From the IMG/VR virus record IMGVR_UViG_2778261315_000003: a stretch of DNA of 41,902 nucleotides; one strand, given 5' to 3'. Shown piece by piece: positions 1,965-41,902 of the stretch (the stretch's first letter is position 1; the number at the start of each line of letters is the position of its first letter). The translations under genes were made by a program, and so were the position numbers. The DNA comes from a virus (lineage: Duplodnaviria > Heunggongvirae > Uroviricota > Caudoviricetes). Below the pieces are notes generated by a model. The model saw only the letters and a program-made list of their open reading frames with translations. It searched no databases and was not told where the DNA came from.

Positions 1965-2447
1965 CTATCTGGTCAGGGTGTCGTACTGTTTTTCGCAGAC
2001 TCTTCCGGCTTCGGCTGCCCGGTCAGCATACTCTGCCAGTTGTCTGTTTCTCTCGAGAGATTTGCTGAGCACGTCGGCAAGCAAAACTCCGGTGTCTGCG
2101 GCTGACGTCCCAGCGCCGACAATGGCGTTATACTGCCTGAGCTGCTCACGGATGGCAAAGAGTTGTTGCTGCAACCGGCCAGCGCGAGCGGCAGCATCAA
2201 GAGCATCATTGCGCGCCTGGTCGATCCTCTGCTGCGCTTCACGTTCATTGATCGATTTCTCCTGTTCGTAGTGCTGACGAACTATCTCATCTTCAGCTTT
2301 GCGGTCTTCCTTCGCCTGCGCATACCCGGCATCGTACTGACGACTGCCGTGTGCATTCCAGGCTACAACTCCTGATATGACCAGAACAGCAAGCATCGCC
2401 ATGATAACCAACTGTTTCCAGTATGCTTTTGCGAATGCCCAGATCAT
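1965..2447 (-). CDS. Rz-like i-spanin (inner-membrane spanin)
   Basis: 160 aa, N-terminal TM helix then charged coiled-coil; directly downstream of endolysin with ATGA-type overlap; contains embedded lipoprotein ORF in another frame. Confidence 0.6.
1973..2209 (-). CDS. Rz1-like o-spanin, embedded in Rz in alternate frame
   Basis: ORF 1973..2248 contains [14 protein letters not shown] lipobox; start placed at internal Met (2209); Pro-containing short mature peptide, fully nested in Rz gene. Confidence 0.55.
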   Translation of the reverse strand: MMLLMLPLALAGCSNNSLPSVSSSGSITPLSALGRQPQTPEFCLPTCSANLSRETDNWQSMLTGQPKPEESAKNSTTP

Positions 2448-3073
2448 ACCGCCAGCACCTTACTGGCAGTGACGTACCGCGCGCGCCGGTCGTCGATGCC
2501 ATTCCTGCCACCATTGATAATCAGAGTTACACGTGCAATATCGCCGGTATACTTCATGCAACCTTTGCTGGAGAAGAACCACGCCGCGCTACGAGCCGCG
2601 TATTCGTCCTGCGCCAACAGTTCAGGATTCTCCAGCAGGTCAACTTTCAGACCGTTTCCACAGTCACGATAGTTATTCAAACCGGTAATCTGGATAAGCC
2701 CGCGCCCACGGTAATTCCAGCCATCACCAGGGGCATTGTTCCCCATGCGTTTGCTGTACACCAGATTTGCGATCGCGCGCTGGCGCTCGAGTGGCAATGG
2801 TGGTTCACCAGCACGGCGACCAAGTGCATTAGCCTGCCCCTGAGTGAGACGCCCAGCCCGAACGAAGTTAGCCAATCCGGTTACGCTGTAGTTGAAATTT
2901 TCCTGCAACCGGGTGAAGCCTCCAGACTCATGCCCGACCTGAGCAATAAACATTGCCTGATCTTCTGGTTTGCTGATACCAAACTCTTTCATCGCAGAAG
3001 TTATATGCGAGAACCAGCGAGCGGCCAGTTCCTCGCTGATACCAGCAGCTCGCTGGAATTGTTTAATCTCCAT
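2444..3073 (-). CDS. endolysin, glycoside hydrolase family 19 (chitinase-like)
   Basis: 209 aa; motifs [30 protein letters not shown] typical of GH19 phage lysins. Confidence 0.85.
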
Positions 3074-3371
3074 GTTTAGACCTCGTTATTTTGAAAATCT
3101 GAACTACGTTACCGCGCGTTTTAATGACTGCAGCAAGCATGACAGCGTTGATAATGACCTCAGATAAATCCACAACCATTGGCGTGCGTAACCAGATTGC
3201 ATAAGCGACACGAACTGGAATGCTGGCCGCAGCAACAATCAGGAAATAAGCAAGCCACCCACCCCATCGCCTGTGTTGAGAACCGTTTCTCCGAAATGTG
3301 GCAACTCGAACTGCTATACCGGCGCAAATAACCGCATTGGTGGTAAGCAAAAAAAGCTCATGAGTTACCAT
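3063..3371 (-). CDS. putative holin (about 3 TM helices)
   Basis: 102 aa, three hydrophobic helices, charged C-terminus, immediately upstream of and overlapping the endolysin start. Confidence 0.55.
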
Positions 3372-3771
3372 CGTCTTTTCTCCCCGGAATTAACTCGCGT
3401 GGATTATCGGAACGGTGATAGAGCCAGATCCCAATTCGCACAGCGACGATTGCTGACACAAATGCACCGGCAGAGAAAACAATCCCTTTCTCGAAAGAAT
3501 CCTGTGTGATTGTAGGGATCAGGCTGGCTATGCCGATAAGAATTGATGCTGCTGGTTTGTAGAATAGAAGTCCGCAGAGAAAGCTAAGCATCGACAAGAG
3601 CACGCGACGACGAATGGGATACTCTACCGCAGAGGTAACAAAAATCACCGCCCCAGCCAAAGACCCCAAAGCAACCTCAGGAGGAACTCCTGCTATCACT
3701 GCCGCCAAAGAACTCATGCTAAGCCACTGATTTAAAGTTTCACTGGTTAGTTGAGCTGACATGTTTTCCAC
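3358..3771 (-). CDS. lysis-cassette membrane protein (holin or antiholin-like, about 4 TM)
   Basis: 137 aa, multiple hydrophobic segments, first gene of lysis cluster after an AT-rich promoter region. Confidence 0.45.
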   Translation of the reverse strand: MENMSAQLTSETLNQWLSMSSLAAVIAGVPPEVALGSLAGAVIFVTSAVEYPIRRRVLLSMLSFLCGLLFYKPAASILIGIASLIPTITQDSFEKGIVFSAGAFVSAIVAVRIGIWLYHRSDNPRELIPGRKDDGNS

Positions 3772-10614: not shown

Positions 10615-10645
10615 AAACAAGGCCGCGAAAGCGGCCTGTTTGATC
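10612..10645. terminator. bidirectional terminator between convergent genes
   Basis: GGCCGC-GAAA-GCGGCC hairpin flanked by A-run on one side and T-run on the other. Confidence 0.55.
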
Positions 10646-11495
10646 ACTGTGCAGTTTTCGCTGATCGATTTTCAGCTCTAAATTCAAGAACCGTTTCAAT
10701 ATTTCTTTCCTTCAGCATATCAATAACATTTTTATTCATTTGACTATCACTGGTTAATAACTGGTAAACGTTGCTTCTCTCTTTATCAGAGTTTTCTTTA
10801 ACAGCTGCTTTGCATGCCAAATGCTTATTGAAATTTTCTACATCGCTAGTACAGGAATTTACGGCTGCTGATGAAATATCAGACGCTGAAGAAACACCGT
10901 CATCCAAACGTTTTATAGCATTTTCTATACATGAGTTAAGGGAATAAACGACAACTGAGCGATACCCTTCAGACGCACACCATTCTAAATTTCTTGAAGG
11001 ATCGAGTGGTTTTACTTCGCTGGATTGAATTAACTTGTCAAAAACTGACTTATATTCAATCTGTTTTTTATCTATAGCCCATACTTCAGTAGCTGATTTA
11101 TAATTCCCCGTATGCCTATTAACATCAAATCCATGTTTTATAAGCAAATCTGCCCATGAAAGATTTATTGATTCATTGTTATGAGGCCATTTTCCTGTCA
11201 GAACCGCCCCCATAGACCCCATATATCCGCCATATGATGGTATAGCACCATGGCTCAGTAACTTCTCTGCAACCACAGGGCAATTAATTACATAAGAGGC
11301 GTAAAGCCCATTCCATAAAGCCCCTCTATAGTAATCGCCACGATTAGGTTCTTTTAAGTCGATAGCCTTTGATAATTGTTCGCACGTTTTGCATGCATCA
11401 AAGTTATCCTTATTGCATTGCAATGAACTGGCAGCTGTAGGATTTACAGAGACTATTGAAAGCACTATGCCAAAAAACAAATTTATTTTTTTCAT
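10644..11495 (-). CDS. AT-rich secreted protein of unknown function (moron), possibly ankyrin-repeat-like
   Basis: 283 aa; N-terminal signal peptide MKKINLFFGIVLSIVSVNPTAA; visibly lower G+C than neighbours; segments ...AEKLLSHGA... and ...ADLLIKHGFDVN... loosely fit ankyrin consensus; start 1 bp after the gp16-like stop. Confidence 0.7.
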   Translation of the reverse strand: MKKINLFFGIVLSIVSVNPTAASSLQCNKDNFDACKTCEQLSKAIDLKEPNRGDYYRGALWNGLYASYVINCPVVAEKLLSHGAIPSYGGYMGSMGAVLTGKWPHNNESINLSWADLLIKHGFDVNRHTGNYKSATEVWAIDKKQIEYKSVFDKLIQSSEVKPLDPSRNLEWCASEGYRSVVVYSLNSCIENAIKRLDDGVSSASDISSAAVNSCTSDVENFNKHLACKAAVKENSDKERSNVYQLLTSDSQMNKNVIDMLKERNIETVLEFRAENRSAKTAQ

Positions 11496-11496
11496 C

Positions 11497-14400
11497 CTAT
11501 TTCATCTGCTCTTCAACTTTATTTAGTAATGGTGATATCGCCCACAGATTCTGAAAAGGTAGCATTTTACGGACAGCGTGGGTTTGCTGGCTGTCAAATT
11601 CTCCGTTAAGTACACCATTTGCAACCGTCGCGGCATCACCGCCAAGATCAAAGGTAGGACCAAGTAAAGCACCAATAGCATTACGACTCTGAAACCTTGA
11701 TACCGGAGGCGCACCAAACATCGCGCCAAGACCAAACCTACCGCCGCTTATGTTCTCAACGGTATTCAGCGGCTCAGAGAGCCAGCCAAGCATTCCGCCC
11801 CGGTCGATCCCCTCTTTCACAAGGTTATTCCAGCTGTAGTCGATATCGCGACCGCTTAACTTCTGTTTCATCATATAGACCATTGAGCCAAGCGCAATCG
11901 TGCCAAGCGCACCAAGATAGAATGCAGCATCGCCCTGCTGGATACCAGATACCAGCACCCTGTTATGCTGTGCGAAGATAAACGTTTTGAACTGCGTGAT
12001 CATCTTCCAGCCTTCTTTACTAAAAAACAGCGGTGTATCACCTACGCCAGGCGTTACAATCACTGAGTCTACATCTTTCAGCACTGCAGACTGGAAAATC
12101 TCTCTAGCGAAACGGTCATCCCACAGATGACTATGCCCGGTTAACAGCCCGTCCATATCCTCTCCGTGCTTCCCGAATTGCTCCCCGATTCGGCGCAGAA
12201 CATCTTCATTGATGCCGACCTGTGCCATCTTCCGCATTTCACTTTTGGAGAGCGTGCCACCAGCAGAAACTTGGCGAGCCGCGTCAAGTATCCTCGACTG
12301 CACTATCATCCCAGACCATGATTTAAGTGCGCTGTTCCACTGATTCATCAGCGTCCAGTTACCGAATTTCTGCGTCATCCAGTTCAGACCTCGCTCAGCG
12401 GCGCTTCTCCGGCTATAGGGGTCAGTAAGATCCGCTATAGCCTTTGTACGCGTAGACAGGACATAATCAAGCCCAACGGCCATTTCTCGCAAATCCCTGG
12501 TTGCAATTTTCACTGAGTCCATATTTTTAAGCATGCTTACCATTGGTCCGAGAGATTTTCTCAGGCCATGCTGCATCATCGGTCGCATCAGATCAGTTGC
12601 AGCGGAGACGGTCATTCCACCAAGCAAACGGAGGAAGTTAATATTCCTAGCAACTCGCCCGGCACGAACAAAGAAACTGCGTGGATCTTGAGGTGCGCCG
12701 TAAGTACCAAGCAGTCGGTCACGCATAGCCGTAATATCCCTAATATCAGCCTCCCGTTGCTTCTCAAGAGCTGCACGTCGTTTAGGTGTTTTAGCCTCTT
12801 TTATTAGCCGGGTATATTCCTCACTAACCTGACGGATTTGCTCCCCCATATCTTTACGGCCAAACTGCGCAGTCAGCTCAATTTCTGGTGCCACCTGCCG
12901 GAGATAACTTTCCATGATGTAGTTAACATCTGATTCAAGAAAATCTTCTATACGCTCATCAGGAATAAGCAGCGTTCGGCTTTTAGTGAAACCAGCCCGA
13001 CCAACGAGTCTCTCTGGGATAATATCGGCTGGTACAAGCCCGGAAGGTGCGCCTATTATTTTATTCACGATCTCGTCAGCAGCGTCCTCTGCTTCCTCTC
13101 GGGATAGAGGCTCCATCTGCTTCAGTGCTCGCTCGCGGCTTGCATTCAGCCTTGTGGTTGAATTTGTCCGTTTTTGCAGTCGGCGAAGCTCAGAACGATA
13201 TTTCCGTGGATTATCCAGCAACTCCATATGGCGCTGATAGACAGGAAGCTCACTCTTTGCCTGCGCTATATCATCAAGGCGTGTTTTAAGGTCAGAGCTT
13301 TCTTTCATCATTCTTGCCTGAAGTTTTTCTGATAAAGTCTCGGCCAACTCTTTTTCTATTCTTGTAAGACGCGCCTGTGTGTCAGTCTCCTGAGATATAA
13401 GCTTATTTCGTTTATCCAGTTCTTCCATGAGTAGAATTTTTTTACCAGACCATTTCTCCGCTTCAGCGATTTCACTAGCGAGAGCATCAGCGCGCGGTGC
13501 TGATTCCTCTGCAGTTTTTAGCAATGAATTTATCTTTTCAATTCGCTGACCTGCTTTGTCAGCACCTTTGGCACTAATCCCTTGTATCCAGTTGGCAATT
13601 CGCCCTCTGAATTCAGTGCGGTCGGAAAGTATCTTATCGAACTTATAAATGCGGGGAAGATAACTTTTCGCCGTCACGACATCGATATCCTCAGGAAGGA
13701 TCCCCAGTTCCTGCATACGGGCTTTTGTGGTCTCGAAAATGGGGCGGATTCTGGCGGCTGCTTGTGAAACCTCAGGAATATCACTCTGATCACCACGGCG
13801 CATAGCCATGCCAACAGCTTCATTGAAATCAATAAAGTTCATCCTCTTCACGCCGCGGGCGCTAACAGATTTGCTGTACTGCTGGTAAGCATCACGAGTA
13901 GCTTCCATCTGCTTATAAAGCATGGCGTCGTATTGCTTAATCTTAGTCTCGACTGCCGTAAACGTAGCCAACCCCTCATCATTTTTGGCGAAGAAATAGT
14001 TATTTTCGGCAAGCTGCTGGTTAATCTGACGGGAAACAAGAGATGGTGATTGCGCCAAGCGGCCAGCAGGAGTGACACTCAACGTTTTGTTAGCAAGTCC
14101 AAGTCCAGCAAGCTGTTCCTGATCGAGTGTGGTATTGAAAACCTGAGCTGCACCAATGCTTTGAGGAGAATCCATACCTCGCAAATGATTACCTACTGAG
14201 TTAACCACTGCCTCGCGCGCGCTAGGTCCAGCAAGTAGCTGTGCACCAGCACCAAGGATCCCACCAACGAGAGCATCAACAACAACGTTCGATACGCTCT
14301 CCATCGGTGAGCGAGCTTCCTGAGTGGCCTGCAATGCGGCCTCTGAAGCAACACTGCCAGCAGCATTGGCTAAAGCAAAACGTCCGGCTGTTTCTGCAAT

Positions 14401-14886
14401 ACGACCGCCACGAACGACAGCGCCGAACGGAATAAACATAGAAATCGCATTGAATGGATCTGCTAATCTCATTGCTACAGAAGAGACTGTACCAGCAAAT
14501 CCCAAGCCTGAATTGTATTCCATGTCAGCTCTCTGCTGATCGATTCGATGTTTAATTGCCATTGTTTCTTCATGCGAACCGGAGTTGATAAACGAATCTG
14601 CAAAATCTTCATAGCCTTTAATATCTGCTGCATCGTTATCAAATGGGTTATATCCTTCAACCCTGTCAAACTGACTGAAAGGAGCACTGGCAATAAAGCT
14701 ACCCAGCGTGTTATCTATACGAAATGCTGCTTGTCTAGACCTTTGAACGCGTTGATCACTGGTAAATGGGTTCACAGCAGAAAGCAAAGAAGGTGTTTCC
14801 ATATAGAAATTACTGTCATCAGGTGCTGCTATTTGCTGAATATCCTCGCCAAGCAACTCTTTAGGATCCTGTTCATATATCGGCAT
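11497..14886 (-). CDS. internal virion (ejection) protein, T7 gp16-like
   Basis: 1129 aa; position after gp15-like gene; C-terminal region (..MITQFKTFIFAQHN.. / Gly-rich end) resembles T7 gp16 C-terminus by recall. Confidence 0.7.
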   Translation of the reverse strand: MPIYEQDPKELLGEDIQQIAAPDDSNFYMETPSLLSAVNPFTSDQRVQRSRQAAFRIDNTLGSFIASAPFSQFDRVEGYNPFDNDAADIKGYEDFADSFINSGSHEETMAIKHRIDQQRADMEYNSGLGFAGTVSSVAMRLADPFNAISMFIPFGAVVRGGRIAETAGRFALANAAGSVASEAALQATQEARSPMESVSNVVVDALVGGILGAGAQLLAGPSAREAVVNSVGNHLRGMDSPQSIGAAQVFNTTLDQEQLAGLGLANKTLSVTPAGRLAQSPSLVSRQINQQLAENNYFFAKNDEGLATFTAVETKIKQYDAMLYKQMEATRDAYQQYSKSVSARGVKRMNFIDFNEAVGMAMRRGDQSDIPEVSQAAARIRPIFETTKARMQELGILPEDIDVVTAKSYLPRIYKFDKILSDRTEFRGRIANWIQGISAKGADKAGQRIEKINSLLKTAEESAPRADALASEIAEAEKWSGKKILLMEELDKRNKLISQETDTQARLTRIEKELAETLSEKLQARMMKESSDLKTRLDDIAQAKSELPVYQRHMELLDNPRKYRSELRRLQKRTNSTTRLNASRERALKQMEPLSREEAEDAADEIVNKIIGAPSGLVPADIIPERLVGRAGFTKSRTLLIPDERIEDFLESDVNYIMESYLRQVAPEIELTAQFGRKDMGEQIRQVSEEYTRLIKEAKTPKRRAALEKQREADIRDITAMRDRLLGTYGAPQDPRSFFVRAGRVARNINFLRLLGGMTVSAATDLMRPMMQHGLRKSLGPMVSMLKNMDSVKIATRDLREMAVGLDYVLSTRTKAIADLTDPYSRRSAAERGLNWMTQKFGNWTLMNQWNSALKSWSGMIVQSRILDAARQVSAGGTLSKSEMRKMAQVGINEDVLRRIGEQFGKHGEDMDGLLTGHSHLWDDRFAREIFQSAVLKDVDSVIVTPGVGDTPLFFSKEGWKMITQFKTFIFAQHNRVLVSGIQQGDAAFYLGALGTIALGSMVYMMKQKLSGRDIDYSWNNLVKEGIDRGGMLGWLSEPLNTVENISGGRFGLGAMFGAPPVSRFQSRNAIGALLGPTFDLGGDAATVANGVLNGEFDSQQTHAVRKMLPFQNLWAISPLLNKVEEQMK

Positions 14887-17636
14887 TATTTGCCCCCTGC
14901 GTATATATTGCTCGGAAGGTAATTGGCTGAACCATAACCGAATGGTTTGGTCAGATCTGGAGGAGTATATCCATCTTTATTGCTGAACTGCGGCAGCGGA
15001 TTGCCTTCTCTCCGCACTCTAGCCTCATCAACACGCTGTTGCTGGAACTGAATGGTTTGCCTGTACATTGGAGATGTCAGCTGATCCGGCTTGAAACGAA
15101 CAGGGAGACCATTTTCTCCAATATAATTTCTCGGTTCTATCGCTCCGTTTGCGTCAGGCTGTAAAACCATAACAGCATAACTCCTATCCCTTGCCGTAAG
15201 GCCATCAGAAACAAGTATTAAGTCCGTATCACTGCGAGGACCGCCAAAGGATTTTGATTTAAGCTCGTGTTTTTCCTGCTCCCACTGCCCCTGTATCCAG
15301 TTACCAGCACCATTATTTACTCCGTACAATGCCTCAGGTGCATACTTCATAACCTCTGCTTTGCCATTAACTGTAGAAACTCCCCAGGTGGTTCTGATCA
15401 TGGCATTGGTCATTTTCTCAGCCTGTTCTGCATCGCCACCTGTCTGTACAAAGTTAGCATCGTAAATTGTCTGGTAATCTCGCTGATAGGCCGCATTTGA
15501 TTTTCCTGGATCGGTAATATCCGGAGACCACGAACCAAAGGAAGTCAGACTGCTGGCGTTATTTTGTGCAGCAGTTGCCCTCGCCGCGACATATTTTTTG
15601 TCTCGCATGGCAGTGGAAAGCATCTGTTTCATTCGGTCATCCTGTTGGAAAACCTGGCTGTAAGCCATATCAACAGCCTTATCCTCCGGCACGCCAGCGC
15701 GGGAATAATCGTAAACCTTGCCGTAAAATGCCATCGTACTTTTATCAAGTGTTGCCGCTGCCGCCGGATTATTATCGAATAACTGACCGTAGAATTTTGC
15801 CATCGGGACAACCAGCGCAGGATCTCTTGATGTTGCTCCACTGTTAAGCATTGTTTTAACCTGAGTTGGTATCATGCCGCTTTTAGTTGTGACGGTGACC
15901 AGTGTATTGATGCTCTGCGGATCAGATATGGAAAACGAAGGCGCGATATCCTGCGCGAAATAACGGTCTACCGCTGCCTGATTGTTTTTGTCGTTCGGGT
16001 CCAGCGGGAAGTTATTTTGCATTGAAGACACGAACCTGTTTCTTCCCTGCTGAATCTCCCACTCCCTATCCATCTCTTTAAATTTGGCCTGCATTTTCTC
16101 CCAGCGTTGCTGGTTAGCTGCAAATCCAGGAGTGTTTGGATCCTGTGGACGTAAACGTTCAAGAATGTCTTGTCGTCCTTCTGGAGTGAGGTCTTTAGCG
16201 GCACCAATGACACCTCCATATTGTATCTGCGCCTGCATATCCTTCCACTTCATAGCGCCAATGCGCGGACCATTGGCCCGGATAAAATCGTCCTCAGAAG
16301 GTAACTTCTCAGGTTTCAATCCTTCATCAAGGGCTGAATATGCATCTTTAACTACGGTGCTAAGCTGGTCCGCATACTGCTGGCGGTACTGATTTCTCAG
16401 CTCATTAGCCTGCCTCAATGCCTGTATTTGCATTTGAGGGCTCATAGCGTCAAATGCCGCATTGCCCGTATAACGCTTAGGTGAATCAAGGTTAGTTAGA
16501 CCAAGGGCTGCCGAGATACCAGTTTCAAGCTGTTCGGTGCTATAAGGCATACTGCCATTTTCGTGTTTAATAATCCCAGCACATAAAGCAGCTAGTGTCT
16601 TTGGGTTAGAGATATCAAGCTGATCATTCTCCCCAACACCAAGCTCACTACACAATGCCCTAATATAAGCATCAGTATTATTACCATCACTAGCCGGAGC
16701 ATAGCGATTAACAATCTCGCTAACGGTGTCATAGCCTTGACGCTGGTAAGACAACATATTTTTACCCAACGCGCGGATTCCATGCTCAGGGGTAGCAAAC
16801 GTTGCAAAACGTCCATCGCTACCGATCTGACCTTCCCACGGGTTAGATTTGCTCGCTTCAATATTACCAGGGTTATTATTACGTAAACCACGAGCATCCA
16901 ATGAATTACCATGTGATATTGCACGACTCACACCATCAAGATCCCCTGGCTCTCCATTAACCTGAAGAAACTCGTTGTATTTTTGAGCGATATTTCCTAT
17001 CCATGCTTGCTGCCCCATTTGTTCCTTGAGCTGAGTTTTCTGCTGAACACGCCACTCATCAGGAAGCCCATGCGCATCAGCGTATTGATCAATAGATTCA
17101 AATCGCTGCTTGGCTAAATCGACAAATGCTTGGTTATCGCTATATAGCCCCGCAGACTGAGTGACAGCCAATGCATTTCCTGACAAATACGTTTGATCTT
17201 GGAATTGCTGAAACTGCCCAACTTCATATCGACGTGCCTGATTGTAATAAGACTGCATAGACTGCTGGAGTTGAAAGGATAATTTATTCCTTTCCTCACT
17301 TTCAGGAATTGAGCCTAATAATGCCTGAGCCCTTTCCTGCATATTTTTCATAACAGCGTCACTCTGACCAAGAGCGTTTTTACCCTGTTTAGAAATCAGC
17401 CCATTTTCAGGGTTGTTAATCTGGTCATCTGCAAATTGGTTAAATTGCAGTAACGCCTCCTGGGCCATAGCAACATTCGCTTTCTGCCTGGCTTCACCAT
17501 ATGCCACCGCATACTGATCTGCGACATTCGCCAGCACCTGACCTGCTTGAGGAACATCGAAGGTCTGAAAACCACCGGTTTGCACACCACGACTTTGCAC
17601 CTGGCGTCCGGATGTAGTAGGAACAACAGGCATCAA
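14886..17636 (-). CDS. internal virion protein, T7 gp15-like, with central conserved motif block
   Basis: 916 aa; gene order gp14-gp15-gp16; central block RGLRNNNPGNIEASKSNPWEGQ...FATFATPEHGIRALGKNMLSYQRQGYDT looks like a conserved enzymatic or binding domain. Confidence 0.65.
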   Translation of the reverse strand: MMPVVPTTSGRQVQSRGVQTGGFQTFDVPQAGQVLANVADQYAVAYGEARQKANVAMAQEALLQFNQFADDQINNPENGLISKQGKNALGQSDAVMKNMQERAQALLGSIPESEERNKLSFQLQQSMQSYYNQARRYEVGQFQQFQDQTYLSGNALAVTQSAGLYSDNQAFVDLAKQRFESIDQYADAHGLPDEWRVQQKTQLKEQMGQQAWIGNIAQKYNEFLQVNGEPGDLDGVSRAISHGNSLDARGLRNNNPGNIEASKSNPWEGQIGSDGRFATFATPEHGIRALGKNMLSYQRQGYDTVSEIVNRYAPASDGNNTDAYIRALCSELGVGENDQLDISNPKTLAALCAGIIKHENGSMPYSTEQLETGISAALGLTNLDSPKRYTGNAAFDAMSPQMQIQALRQANELRNQYRQQYADQLSTVVKDAYSALDEGLKPEKLPSEDDFIRANGPRIGAMKWKDMQAQIQYGGVIGAAKDLTPEGRQDILERLRPQDPNTPGFAANQQRWEKMQAKFKEMDREWEIQQGRNRFVSSMQNNFPLDPNDKNNQAAVDRYFAQDIAPSFSISDPQSINTLVTVTTKSGMIPTQVKTMLNSGATSRDPALVVPMAKFYGQLFDNNPAAAATLDKSTMAFYGKVYDYSRAGVPEDKAVDMAYSQVFQQDDRMKQMLSTAMRDKKYVAARATAAQNNASSLTSFGSWSPDITDPGKSNAAYQRDYQTIYDANFVQTGGDAEQAEKMTNAMIRTTWGVSTVNGKAEVMKYAPEALYGVNNGAGNWIQGQWEQEKHELKSKSFGGPRSDTDLILVSDGLTARDRSYAVMVLQPDANGAIEPRNYIGENGLPVRFKPDQLTSPMYRQTIQFQQQRVDEARVRREGNPLPQFSNKDGYTPPDLTKPFGYGSANYLPSNIYAGGK

Positions 17637-18199
17637 TAACCTCCTATTTTGAATCGGGAGTCAGAATTCATAAAACCTGAGTTAGATAACATTGGCGTGT
17701 TTCCTTGCTTACTAATCGGATTGATACTTCCGCCACCCAACTTATATGCACCGTATGCTTTTAGTGGTGCCGTTAACAAAGTGCTGGTCATCGATGATTT
17801 AGCAGCCGACTGAGCAGCAGCCCCCTGTGCCTGAGCATTCATTCCCTGAACCTGATACCCATATGCCTCACGCTGAGCATTATTCACTGTCGTTAACGCA
17901 TCAAGAGTGCCGAACTGAGCATTATCCGCAAAAACGTCAAGAGCTGTTCCGCTACTTAATTCCGCACCGGTAGCCCCCATAGTGGCCGCCGCAGTGCCTG
18001 AGCGTTGACGCATTTCACGACGACGCTGATCCGCTTCAATATTCCCACGATTGATTGAATCCTGTGCCTGAGCTTCAGCAATTTCAGCATTCCGATCAGC
18101 TATGGCTGACTGGTATTTTGCCTGCTTGCTCTGGCTGTACATTGACGCGGCTGTGGATGCCACTGTGACGGCAACCAAAGCGATGGCTGGGTTACACAT
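17633..18199 (-). CDS. internal virion protein, T7 gp14-like
   Basis: 188 aa starting MCNPAIALVAVTVASTAAS..., Ala/Gln-rich; composition and start resemble T7 gp14 (MCWAAAIPIAISGAQA...). Confidence 0.65.
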   Translation of the reverse strand: MCNPAIALVAVTVASTAASMYSQSKQAKYQSAIADRNAEIAEAQAQDSINRGNIEADQRRREMRQRSGTAAATMGATGAELSSGTALDVFADNAQFGTLDALTTVNNAQREAYGYQVQGMNAQAQGAAAQSAAKSSMTSTLLTAPLKAYGAYKLGGGSINPISKQGNTPMLSNSGFMNSDSRFKIGGY

Positions 18200-18663
18200 T
18201 ATTTTCTCTCCATGTGAAATCTGTGGAAATTAAGACCAAGAGCACCATAAGGCGCGGCTTCTTCAAGCCTGAATCCAAGCCAGTGCAGCCATGCTTTGGC
18301 AACATGGTTTCGCTCGTCGACGTAGTTTTCCAGGCGCGGATAAACTGCCAGCATCTGCTGCAATACAGGGCGGCAGTGGCGAAGAAATGTCTTCTGATAT
18401 TTTTCAATACGGCTGGTTCCGATCAGCCAGGGCGTACCATTGCCACCGATCATTGACGCCGGAGATACACCAAACATGGTTACCAGTTCTCCGTTCGCGA
18501 ACCCTGACCAGGCCATAGTCGCAGTGCGCAGACCAACACGCAGCGCATCTTCGGTAGTCATCAGCGATACCGCATACAGTTCGTCAATATCAGCCTGACG
18601 AACATCCGGCAAAATCATCTGAAGATGCTCTTCGGTAGCGGGAATAATTTGAACGTCGATCAT
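18199..18663 (-). CDS. virion-associated hypothetical protein (gp13 position)
   Basis: 154 aa ORF tightly packed between tail-tube and gp14-like genes. Confidence 0.45.
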   Translation of the reverse strand: MIDVQIIPATEEHLQMILPDVRQADIDELYAVSLMTTEDALRVGLRTATMAWSGFANGELVTMFGVSPASMIGGNGTPWLIGTSRIEKYQKTFLRHCRPVLQQMLAVYPRLENYVDERNHVAKAWLHWLGFRLEEAAPYGALGLNFHRFHMERK

Positions 18664-40651: not shown

Positions 40652-41902
40652 TTATTCTCCCGCCATCCACTTCTCAAACTTCGACGGGGAGAACGGAATC
40701 AGATCCGTATGCTCCCCGTCAATCCAGGAATCAATCATATCTGCCCACTGCTGCAACATGTAGGCGCGCTGTCTGGCGTATTCCGCTTTGTTATATACGG
40801 CGCGCACACCTTTCTGCTCATGTGCCAGAGCCTTTTCAATCCAGTCTGAAGGATAACCAGCCTCATGCAACAACGTACTGGCTGTACGGCGCATATCGTG
40901 TACGGTGAAGTCCTGAATATGCTCACCATCTTCATTTATTATTTTCACCGTTCTGTCGATCAGAGAGTTCAACGCGGCATTAGATAATGGCTTCCGGAAA
41001 TTGTAACGACCAGGAACCAGGTATTCACTTCCACCAGCGCACATCTGCAACCCAACCAATATATCCTGTGCTTGTTTAGGCAGGTAAATAACGTGCGCCC
41101 GGCTTCCCTTCATGCGGTCTGAAGGAATTGTCCATGTCCATTTTTTAAAATCTATTTCATCCCACGTTGCATTGGTGAATTCGCCCTTACGAACCATAGT
41201 GATAAGCACCAGTTTTAAAGCCATTTTCATAGTGCCCATAGCACCAATGGCATCCAGCGTGCGGAAGAACAGGCCAATTTCTTCTGGTGTCAGTGTTCGC
41301 TCTCGTGGTTTAAATATGGCGATAGACGAAGGTTTAATGTCAGCCGCAGGATTAAACAAACCATGACCACGGTCATTGGCGTGACGGTATACGCTACTGA
41401 TGATCTCCCTGGCCTGCACTGCTGTTGCCCGACCACCGCGTTCGACAATCCGGTCACACAAATCACGAACCATCGATGTGGTAATTTCAGCCATCATTTT
41501 GTTGCCAAGAACCGGAAGTATGTCACGGTCGATCACCGCCTGCTTCATTGCGCGGGTACTGTCAGCCAGGATGACGTGTTTCATATAACTGTCGGTATGT
41601 ACCGCAAACGTCTCGGCACCACGAATCTTTTTGATACCGTCACGTTTAGCCGCAGCCGGCGACTGGCCTGCTTTAAGCAGCTTCTTTGCAGCAATCAGTT
41701 CTTCTCGCGCTTCTGCCAGGCTGATACCGTCACGCCCATACTGCCCGATTACCAGTGTTTCGCGGCGACCGTTGATACGGTAGTCATAGCGAAACGAGAC
41801 CGTGCCTGACGTAAGCACAGCTACATACAGCCCGTCACGATCGGAGACCTTGTACAGTTTGTCCTGCGGCTTGAGGTTTTTTAATTTTGTATCGGTAAGC
41901 AC
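40652..41902 (-). CDS. int: tyrosine integrase, P4 / CP4-57 type (N-terminus at window edge)
   Basis: 416 aa; N-terminal arm-binding region and C-terminal catalytic region (HDMRRTASTLLHEAGY...RAVY); ORF reaches the window end with a GTG start. Confidence 0.9.
   Translation of the reverse strand: MLTDTKLKNLKPQDKLYKVSDRDGLYVAVLTSGTVSFRYDYRINGRRETLVIGQYGRDGISLAEAREELIAAKKLLKAGQSPAAAKRDGIKKIRGAETFAVHTDSYMKHVILADSTRAMKQAVIDRDILPVLGNKMMAEITTSMVRDLCDRIVERGGRATAVQAREIISSVYRHANDRGHGLFNPAADIKPSSIAIFKPRERTLTPEEIGLFFRTLDAIGAMGTMKMALKLVLITMVRKGEFTNATWDEIDFKKWTWTIPSDRMKGSRAHVIYLPKQAQDILVGLQMCAGGSEYLVPGRYNFRKPLSNAALNSLIDRTVKIINEDGEHIQDFTVHDMRRTASTLLHEAGYPSDWIEKALAHEQKGVRAVYNKAEYARQRAYMLQQWADMIDSWIDGEHTDLIPFSPSKFEKWMAGE

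Follow-up and report, generated by a model that had tools for sequence, protein, structure and literature searches.

Locus and carrier gene

In this study, the gene of a predicted internal virion protein of 916 amino acids (aa) was investigated in the IMG/VR record IMGVR_UViG_2778261315_000003, a tailed-phage (Caudoviricetes) DNA of 41,902 nucleotides (nt), the whole of which is hereafter called the window. We observed that this protein harbors, in its interior, a peptidoglycan hydrolase domain of the type known from the endolysin ORF39 of phage Enc34. The features of the gene and of the domain are as follows.

14886..17636, minus strand: gp15-position internal virion/ejection protein, 916 aa, with embedded hydrolase domain (open reading frame (ORF) list; full-length match to phrog_1044)
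16485..16892, minus strand: peptidoglycan hydrolase domain of the Enc34 ORF39 / PM2 P5 type (CDD PHA02564), residues ~249-384
16725..16892, minus strand: block RGLRNNNPGNIE...QGYDT singled out by the first-pass annotation of this DNA, residues 249-304, which takes in the RNNNPGN motif, a long loop and the domain's first long helix
16701..16703, minus strand: codon of Tyr312, at the position of Enc34 Trp79 (groove aromatic)
16665..16667, minus strand: codon of Tyr324, counterpart of Enc34 Tyr95 in the active-site groove (role from PMC8943055)
16560..16562, minus strand: codon of Glu359 (HENGS motif), counterpart of the catalytic Enc34 Glu131 (alignment to 7q47; assignment from PMC8943055)

The ORF and its length of 916 aa were exactly as the first-pass annotation had given them. 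Its start region displays a TTG at 17636 followed immediately by an ATG at 17633, and since this ATG is preceded at 6 nt by an AGGAGG and shares nucleotides with the TGA that ends the upstream gene, the true product is probably a protein of 915 aa that starts there; residue numbers throughout follow the 916-aa numbering. The protein is Q/A-rich and mostly helical. The description of everything outside the block as low-complexity was not borne out, as each of the three parts of the protein has a residue entropy of about 4.0 bits.

Identity, extent and fold of the embedded domain

The block had been noticed as a conserved-looking, catalytic-type stretch, and it proved to belong to a real domain. 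A phmmer search against the sequences of the PDB matched residues 248-400 to 9vvp_L, the 1295-aa protein 'Gp29' (expect value (E) 4e-35), and residues 248-363 to 7q47_A, 'Endolysin' (E 2.8e-15). The source of Gp29 is a Kayfunavirus, whose annotation gives the matched locus as coding for an internal virion protein or a component of the DNA ejectosome. The entry 7Q47 represents the catalytic domain of ORF39, the endolysin of Hafnia phage Enc34, of family PHA02564 (PMC8943055). An identification of 7Q47 as Pae87 of phage JG004 (Pfam Muramidase, PF11860) was ruled out, as Pae87 corresponds to the entries 7q4s and 7q4t and belongs to another family (PMC8972805). The protein P5 of PM2, the source of the database name 'structural protein P5', has been placed in the same fold and family as the Enc34 domain (PMC9502842).

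An AlphaFold2 (AF2) model of residues 225-410, with 43 homologues in the alignment, reached a mean predicted local distance difference test (pLDDT) of 86.7, with the core above 90, and the predicted fold is all-helical and superposes on 7Q47. The domain is a predicted glycosidase of about 136 residues of the type of the Enc34 endolysin, M4Lys and PM2 P5, resembling the alpha lobe of lysozyme and having one catalytic Glu, and it is sited between an N-terminal helical part (residues ~1-230) and a C-terminal part (~400-916). Residues 249-304, to which the first-pass annotation had drawn attention, stand as a real portion of it; the domain is larger than that, with its core at about 249-384 and the catalytic Glu at 359.

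Scans of the 916-aa protein against Pfam-A and NCBIfam matched no enzymatic family. A search of 1.84 billion proteins with a profile of the domain recovered 19,682 cluster representatives (50% identity) at E<=1e-3, among which are single-domain proteins of about 140-250 aa as well as many longer ones (560-950 aa) in which the domain occupies about residues 240-400, as in the 916-aa protein. In one of these matches (P0241, 762 aa), four stretches were matched to the domain profile. With tblastn, the domain found matches in 808 phage records, spread over the N-termini of Kayfunavirus gp16, chi-like endolysins, Pseudomonas Mu-like phages, corticoviruses and microviruses, and the domain is also present in an effector of a type VI secretion system. 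A merely accidental similarity of the block, or one due to biased composition, without a conserved domain underlying it, is hardly credible, being refuted by the two PDB matches, the fold match and the number of profile-matched representatives.

Conservation and active site

The search for homologues yielded 1,649 of them. Across 26 full-length homologues, the mean identity to the query was highest in the domain (0.74 over residues 244-380), followed by the C-terminal part (0.59) and the N-terminal part (0.40). The groove of Enc34 ORF39 is lined by Glu131, Trp79 and Tyr95 (PMC8943055), and the counterparts of the first and the last of these, E359 and Y324, are unchanged in all 43 domain homologues. 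Position 312 is aromatic in every one of the 43 (W in 28, Y in 14, F in 1). R252, N253, N255, P256, G257, N258, W267, G269, F280, G286, R288 and A289 are likewise invariant or nearly so in this set. Among 119 domain-bearing full-length homologues, 113 display the motif [HQ]ENG, and the remaining six still have the Glu, within QEIG, QETG, RESG or QENK. The block belongs to a domain that is homologous, in sequence and in fold, to an enzyme with experimentally shown muralytic activity, and the active-site residues are conserved, which agrees with its first-pass description as catalytic-type.

Within the Enc34/M4Lys family, muralytic activity has been shown for two constructs only, Enc34 ORF39deltaC (PMC8943055) and M4LysdeltaTMD (PMC7143992). 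The former lyses Escherichia coli, P. aeruginosa and H. alvei once the outer membrane is permeabilised (PMC8943055). M4Lys of Salmonella phage BSPM4, which has the same domain, degraded peptidoglycan with release of N-acetylglucosamine (GlcNAc), and an N-acetylglucosaminidase activity was suggested (PMC7143992).

It may be argued that the domain is a catalytically inactive relic, serving as a peptidoglycan-binding anchor or a structural spacer of the ejection protein. This accords with the fact that activity is predicted here from sequence and fold, and with the Tyr that stands in place of Trp79. We nevertheless consider it improbable, as neither the catalytic Glu nor the groove Tyr varies among 43 diverse homologues, the Glu is kept in 119 of the 119 domain-bearing full-length ones, and the domain is the best-conserved part of the protein.

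Exchange of muralytic domains at one internal site

Comparison with related phages revealed that the place of the domain can be taken by another one. The protein gp37 of phage TL-2011b (905 aa) is homologous to the 916-aa protein over its whole length (E 2e-105, 29% identity), and its residues 263-342 are a Pfam SLT domain (30.2 bits; cut-off 21.3) at the aligned position of the Enc34-type domain. Tyrion gp16, on the other hand, has the Enc34-type domain, and some E. coli prophages share just the first ~55 codons of the gene, after which they continue into a 'transglycosylase SLT domain-containing protein' beside the gp14-family gene. The occurrence of SLT and Enc34-type modules at one site of homologous carriers indicates that different muralytic domains are exchanged there, and no other indirect argument speaks as strongly for an enzymatic purpose of the block. 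The same replacement of the domain by a canonical SLT in homologues of the TL-2011b type speaks against an inactive relic, since it argues for selection on enzymatic function.

A gene of Vibrio phage 456E52-1 (L003:3580-5721, 713 aa) matches only the C-terminal scaffold of the 916-aa protein. Its product, named 'putative lytic transglycosylase', was rejected as a second SLT example because it has no Pfam SLT match and no recognisable muralytic motif, and for the same reasons it was classed as a scaffold devoid of a hydrolase; relatives with an SLT domain are the probable source of the name. This homologue without the domain lends something to the relic explanation, in that the domain is not structurally indispensable to the scaffold.

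The gene is mosaic at its start as well. A sharp junction lies at window positions ~17470-17636, which correspond to its ~55 first codons; these share 96-99% nucleotide identity with TL-2011b, Tyrion and the SLT-variant E. coli prophages, while the remainder shares 29-48% protein identity. The shared start may represent a conserved N-terminal segment tied to the gp14-like upstream gene or to packaging.

A tentative and rather doubtful extension of these observations is that the site near residue 240 acts as a recombination 'socket', in which prophages of E. coli, Klebsiella and Serratia swap an Enc34-type domain, an SLT domain or none, with the choice of enzyme, and with it that of the bond to be cut, being adaptive. 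Such a choice may, for instance, fit the peptidoglycan modification or growth state of the host, or evade host inhibitors of lytic transglycosylases. If this were true, six glucosaminidase copies in the tunnel wall would constitute a way of breaching the sacculus that is mechanistically distinct from the 'wings' of T7 gp16.

Neighbouring ejection genes and gp15 position

The 916-aa gene lies in a block of genes for internal virion proteins, with a T7_gp14-family gene upstream of it and a T7 gp16-family gene downstream.

18199..18663, minus strand: internal virion protein, 154 aa, gp13 position, opening the ejection/core block (phrog_308 'internal virion protein', E 2.4e-62)
17633..18199, minus strand: gp14-like internal virion protein, 188 aa, stop/start overlap with the 916-aa gene (Pfam T7_gp14, 32.9 bits, cut-off 27; phrog_418, E 2.6e-65)
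11497..14886, minus strand: gp16-like internal virion protein, 1129 aa (phrog_342, E 7.6e-233)
10644-11495, minus strand: protein of 283 aa with a signal peptide at its N-terminus, following immediately downstream of the ejection genes (phrog_6118, unknown function, E 1.1e-200)

The four top Foldseek matches of the full-length AF2 model among 350,542 chains were all T7 gp15 (7k5c_A, 9jyy_G, 6yt5_A and 7eyb_A), with E of 8e-5 to 5e-3 and match probabilities of 0.89-1.0. By gene order and this weak fold match, the protein may tentatively be called gp15-like. The 154-aa protein gave a weak match to Pfam Phage_T7_Gp13 (E 0.16), and the 283-aa phrog_6118 protein may be a gene of the moron or superinfection-exclusion type.

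With regard to the gp16-like protein, the first-pass annotation had seen no SLT motif in it, and this was confirmed. Neither the 916-aa nor the 1129-aa protein matched Pfam SLT (PF01464) at E<=1 in a scan for which TL-2011b gp37 (30.2 bits) served as the positive control. Residues 21-1129 of the 1129-aa protein align to positions 192-1227 only of the phrog_342 profile, which T7 gp16 enters at position 4, with its SLT at residues ~5-139. Because the match starts at position 192, past the SLT segment of T7, the 1129-aa protein is a gp16 homologue without the SLT module, and no substitute hydrolase on it could take over if the domain of the 916-aa protein were an inactive relic. No match between the 1129-aa protein and T7 gp16 was obtained with BLASTP, so the homology is visible only through phrog_342, and phmmer against the PDB gave no meaningful match.

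In RefSeq, the label given to this gp16 homologue by the Prokaryotic Genome Annotation Pipeline is 'DUF919 family protein'. It derives from a coiled-coil stretch of 46 residues that matched a baculovirus family (23.5 bits; cut-off 21), and the name is likely a misannotation, as the phrog_342 match points to an internal virion protein.

The prophage and its lysis genes

At its left end (1-1900), the window belongs to the core chromosome of E. coli, with yfgG-yfgH-yfgI and 100% identity to strain DLL7555, from which it follows that the element is a prophage. It begins directly after yfgI, with the Rz/Rz1 spanin genes first (1965-2447). At the right end (40652-41902), an integrase-like ORF runs past the window edge. 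Over the 916-aa gene, the prophage shares 99.6% identity with Escherichia phage EC.W1-9, and Tyrion and TL-2011b are among its relatives in Uetakevirus (epsilon15-like phages). The element is an epsilon15-related (Uetakevirus-like) temperate podovirus integrated beside yfgI in E. coli. Its lysis genes are arranged as follows.

1965..3771: lysis cassette with two holins, GH19 endolysin, and Rz with embedded Rz1
2444..3073, minus strand: GH19-type lysis endolysin of the prophage (Pfam Glyco_hydro_19, 37.9 bits, cut-off 25.5; phrog_181 endolysin)

The partners of the endolysin in the cassette were assigned to phrog_198 and phrog_217 (holins) and phrog_312 (Rz-like spanin). The cassette is about 11.8 kb away from the 916-aa gene, which sits in the virion module, and its separate and complete presence implies that the hydrolase domain of the 916-aa protein is not the lysis enzyme. 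An end-of-infection endolysin would agree with the label of phrog_1044 (endolysin, lysis), with the record NC_019445, in which the homologue TL-2011b gp37 is called 'endolysin', and with the closest solved relative being a genuine endolysin. We regard this explanation as very improbable all the same, as the gene lies between gp14- and gp16-family genes with overlapping stop and start codons, the product has 916 aa that mostly resemble T7 gp15, if weakly, in the fold search, and host lysis is already provided for by two holins, the GH19 endolysin and Rz/Rz1.

Comparison with known systems

The domain occurs in several kinds of carriers. Enc34 ORF39 and M4Lys are lysis-cassette enzymes of about 26 kDa with a C-terminal transmembrane domain, whereas here the domain is internal to an ejection protein of 916 aa with no membrane anchor, and Enc34 Trp79 is replaced by Tyr. 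The gp16 homologue Gp29 of a Kayfunavirus (9vvp_L), for which a cryo-electron microscopy entry exists, displays the same Enc34-type domain on a podovirus ejection protein, the Kayfunavirus loci having about 45-48% identity in tblastn, and so do entries named 'internal virion protein with endolysin domain', such as Citrobacter phage CR44b gp16. In these phages, the domain presumably serves wall penetration at infection. There, it forms the N-terminal end of the gp16 homologue, where T7 has its SLT; in the present prophage, it lies within the gp15-position protein, and no hydrolase module is present on the gp16 homologue.

The SLT domain (GH23) of T7 gp16 has the same proposed role, namely local peptidoglycan cleavage by an ejected virion protein (PMC8954989), and differs in belonging to another protein family and being borne by another carrier protein. 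The bond and chemistry probably differ as well, with a hydrolytic glucosaminidase here and a lytic transglycosylase in T7. Closer to the present case, TL-2011b gp37 and the SLT-variant E. coli prophages share the gene order and have their muralytic domain at the same internal position (~230-350); in TL-2011b gp37 the insert is a Pfam SLT and not of the Enc34 type, and identity is about 29% beyond the first ~55 residues.

Muralytic gp15-position proteins are also represented by phiKMV gp36, whose lysozyme-type domain is C-terminal. Hydrolase domains on the gp15 homologues of the SP6-like phages K1E and K1-5 (gp35) have been reviewed (PMC8954989), and they set a precedent for muralytic activity on the gp15-position protein and not on gp16. 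The domains of gp35 are described as lysozyme-type domains of other families, at other positions in the protein.

Proposed role in DNA delivery

The homology, the fold, the conservation of the active site, the gene order, the gp16 homologue without SLT and the exchange with SLT at the same site are jointly best explained by an Enc34-type glycosidase domain embedded in a gp15-position ejection protein and used for local cutting of the wall during DNA delivery, which we consider highly probable. The first-pass proposal that a muralytic function resides on the gp15-like instead of the gp16-like protein is thereby supported, with an enzymatic fold predicted for the block and the 1129-aa protein having no SLT domain; the activity of the 916-aa protein itself is predicted from its sequence. 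We infer that this protein is enzymatically active, present in the virion, ejected, and specific for a bond that, by analogy with M4Lys, is probably GlcNAc-beta-1,4-MurNAc (MurNAc, N-acetylmuramic acid), as cut by an N-acetylglucosaminidase.

Under this proposal, the 916-aa protein would be packaged in the capsid core together with the gp14-like and gp16-like proteins and, after adsorption, would be expelled through the tail. It would then join a trans-periplasmic conduit, where the embedded hydrolase would cut glycan strands locally, and the resulting opening of the sacculus would let the channel and the DNA cross the cell wall. The embedded hydrolase would thus take the role of the N-terminal SLT 'wings' of T7 gp16 (PMC8954989). 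By analogy with T7, the hydrolase activity may matter only with highly cross-linked peptidoglycan. An SLT mutant of T7 gp16 is delayed under conditions such as stationary phase or low temperature of the host (Moak and Molineux 2000, cited in PMC8954989).

Several observations weigh against this proposal. The link to T7 gp15 is weak: BLASTP aligns T7 gp15 559-639 with residues 701-784 at 21% identity (E 0.002-0.005; 84 co-linear residues), the two proteins fall into different PHROG families (phrog_1339 for T7 gp15, phrog_1044 for the 916-aa protein), the template modelling (TM) scores to the T7 gp15 chains are just 0.13-0.25, and the full-length AF2 model has a pLDDT of 74 and a predicted TM score of 0.42. 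As a result, the picture of a periplasmic tunnel rests on analogy. The full-length model also has low confidence at the start of the domain (residues 237-277), and the segments on either side of the domain (226-248 and 377-400) are rich in G/S/D/N, both of which would fit a domain suspended on flexible linkers. Additionally, the equivalent of Trp79 is Tyr in the 916-aa protein, though this is a common variant (14 of the 43 homologues), and the data on M4Lys suggested endopeptidase activity too (PMC7143992), which weakens the assignment of a bond specificity to the family.

Annotation and significance

Of 5,426 complete E. coli genomes, 119 contain the gene, which also occurs in many prophages of Klebsiella, Serratia and Salmonella, and the names it bears in RefSeq and GenBank are 'hypothetical protein' or 'bacteriophage protein'. 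The present results give this gene, which RefSeq leaves unannotated, a specific and testable functional assignment, with E359 as the catalytic residue. An annotation gap is disclosed as well, as the Enc34/P5-type domain has about 20,000 representatives and yet no Pfam-A or NCBIfam model in the libraries searched. The family phrog_1044 is labelled 'endolysin' in the category lysis, and the two members that were scanned, the 916-aa protein and TL-2011b gp37, are ejection proteins of about 900 aa with an SLT or Enc34-type insert. This label can mislead automated annotation, as may be seen from the RefSeq name 'endolysin' for TL-2011b gp37.

With reference to the literature, no paper was found in our search on an Enc34-type domain inside the gp15-position protein of epsilon15-like prophages; searches on 9VVP, and on Enc34 combined with virion-associated, gave nothing on such a domain in ejection proteins, and an epsilon15 paper (PMC12391199) held nothing relevant to a gp15-position hydrolase. 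The Enc34-type domain family is already known, structurally solved and widespread in phages. A muralytic function on gp15 is a recognised pattern (K1E and K1-5 gp35; PMC8954989) and is not new. The finding is useful for annotation, fits the known biology of podoviruses, leaves the current view of infection by these phages unchanged and is unsurprising to a specialist; what it adds is one more case, a clean one with an SLT domain as the counterpart at the equivalent site, of the mosaic swapping of wall-degrading modules already known from podovirus ejection proteins.

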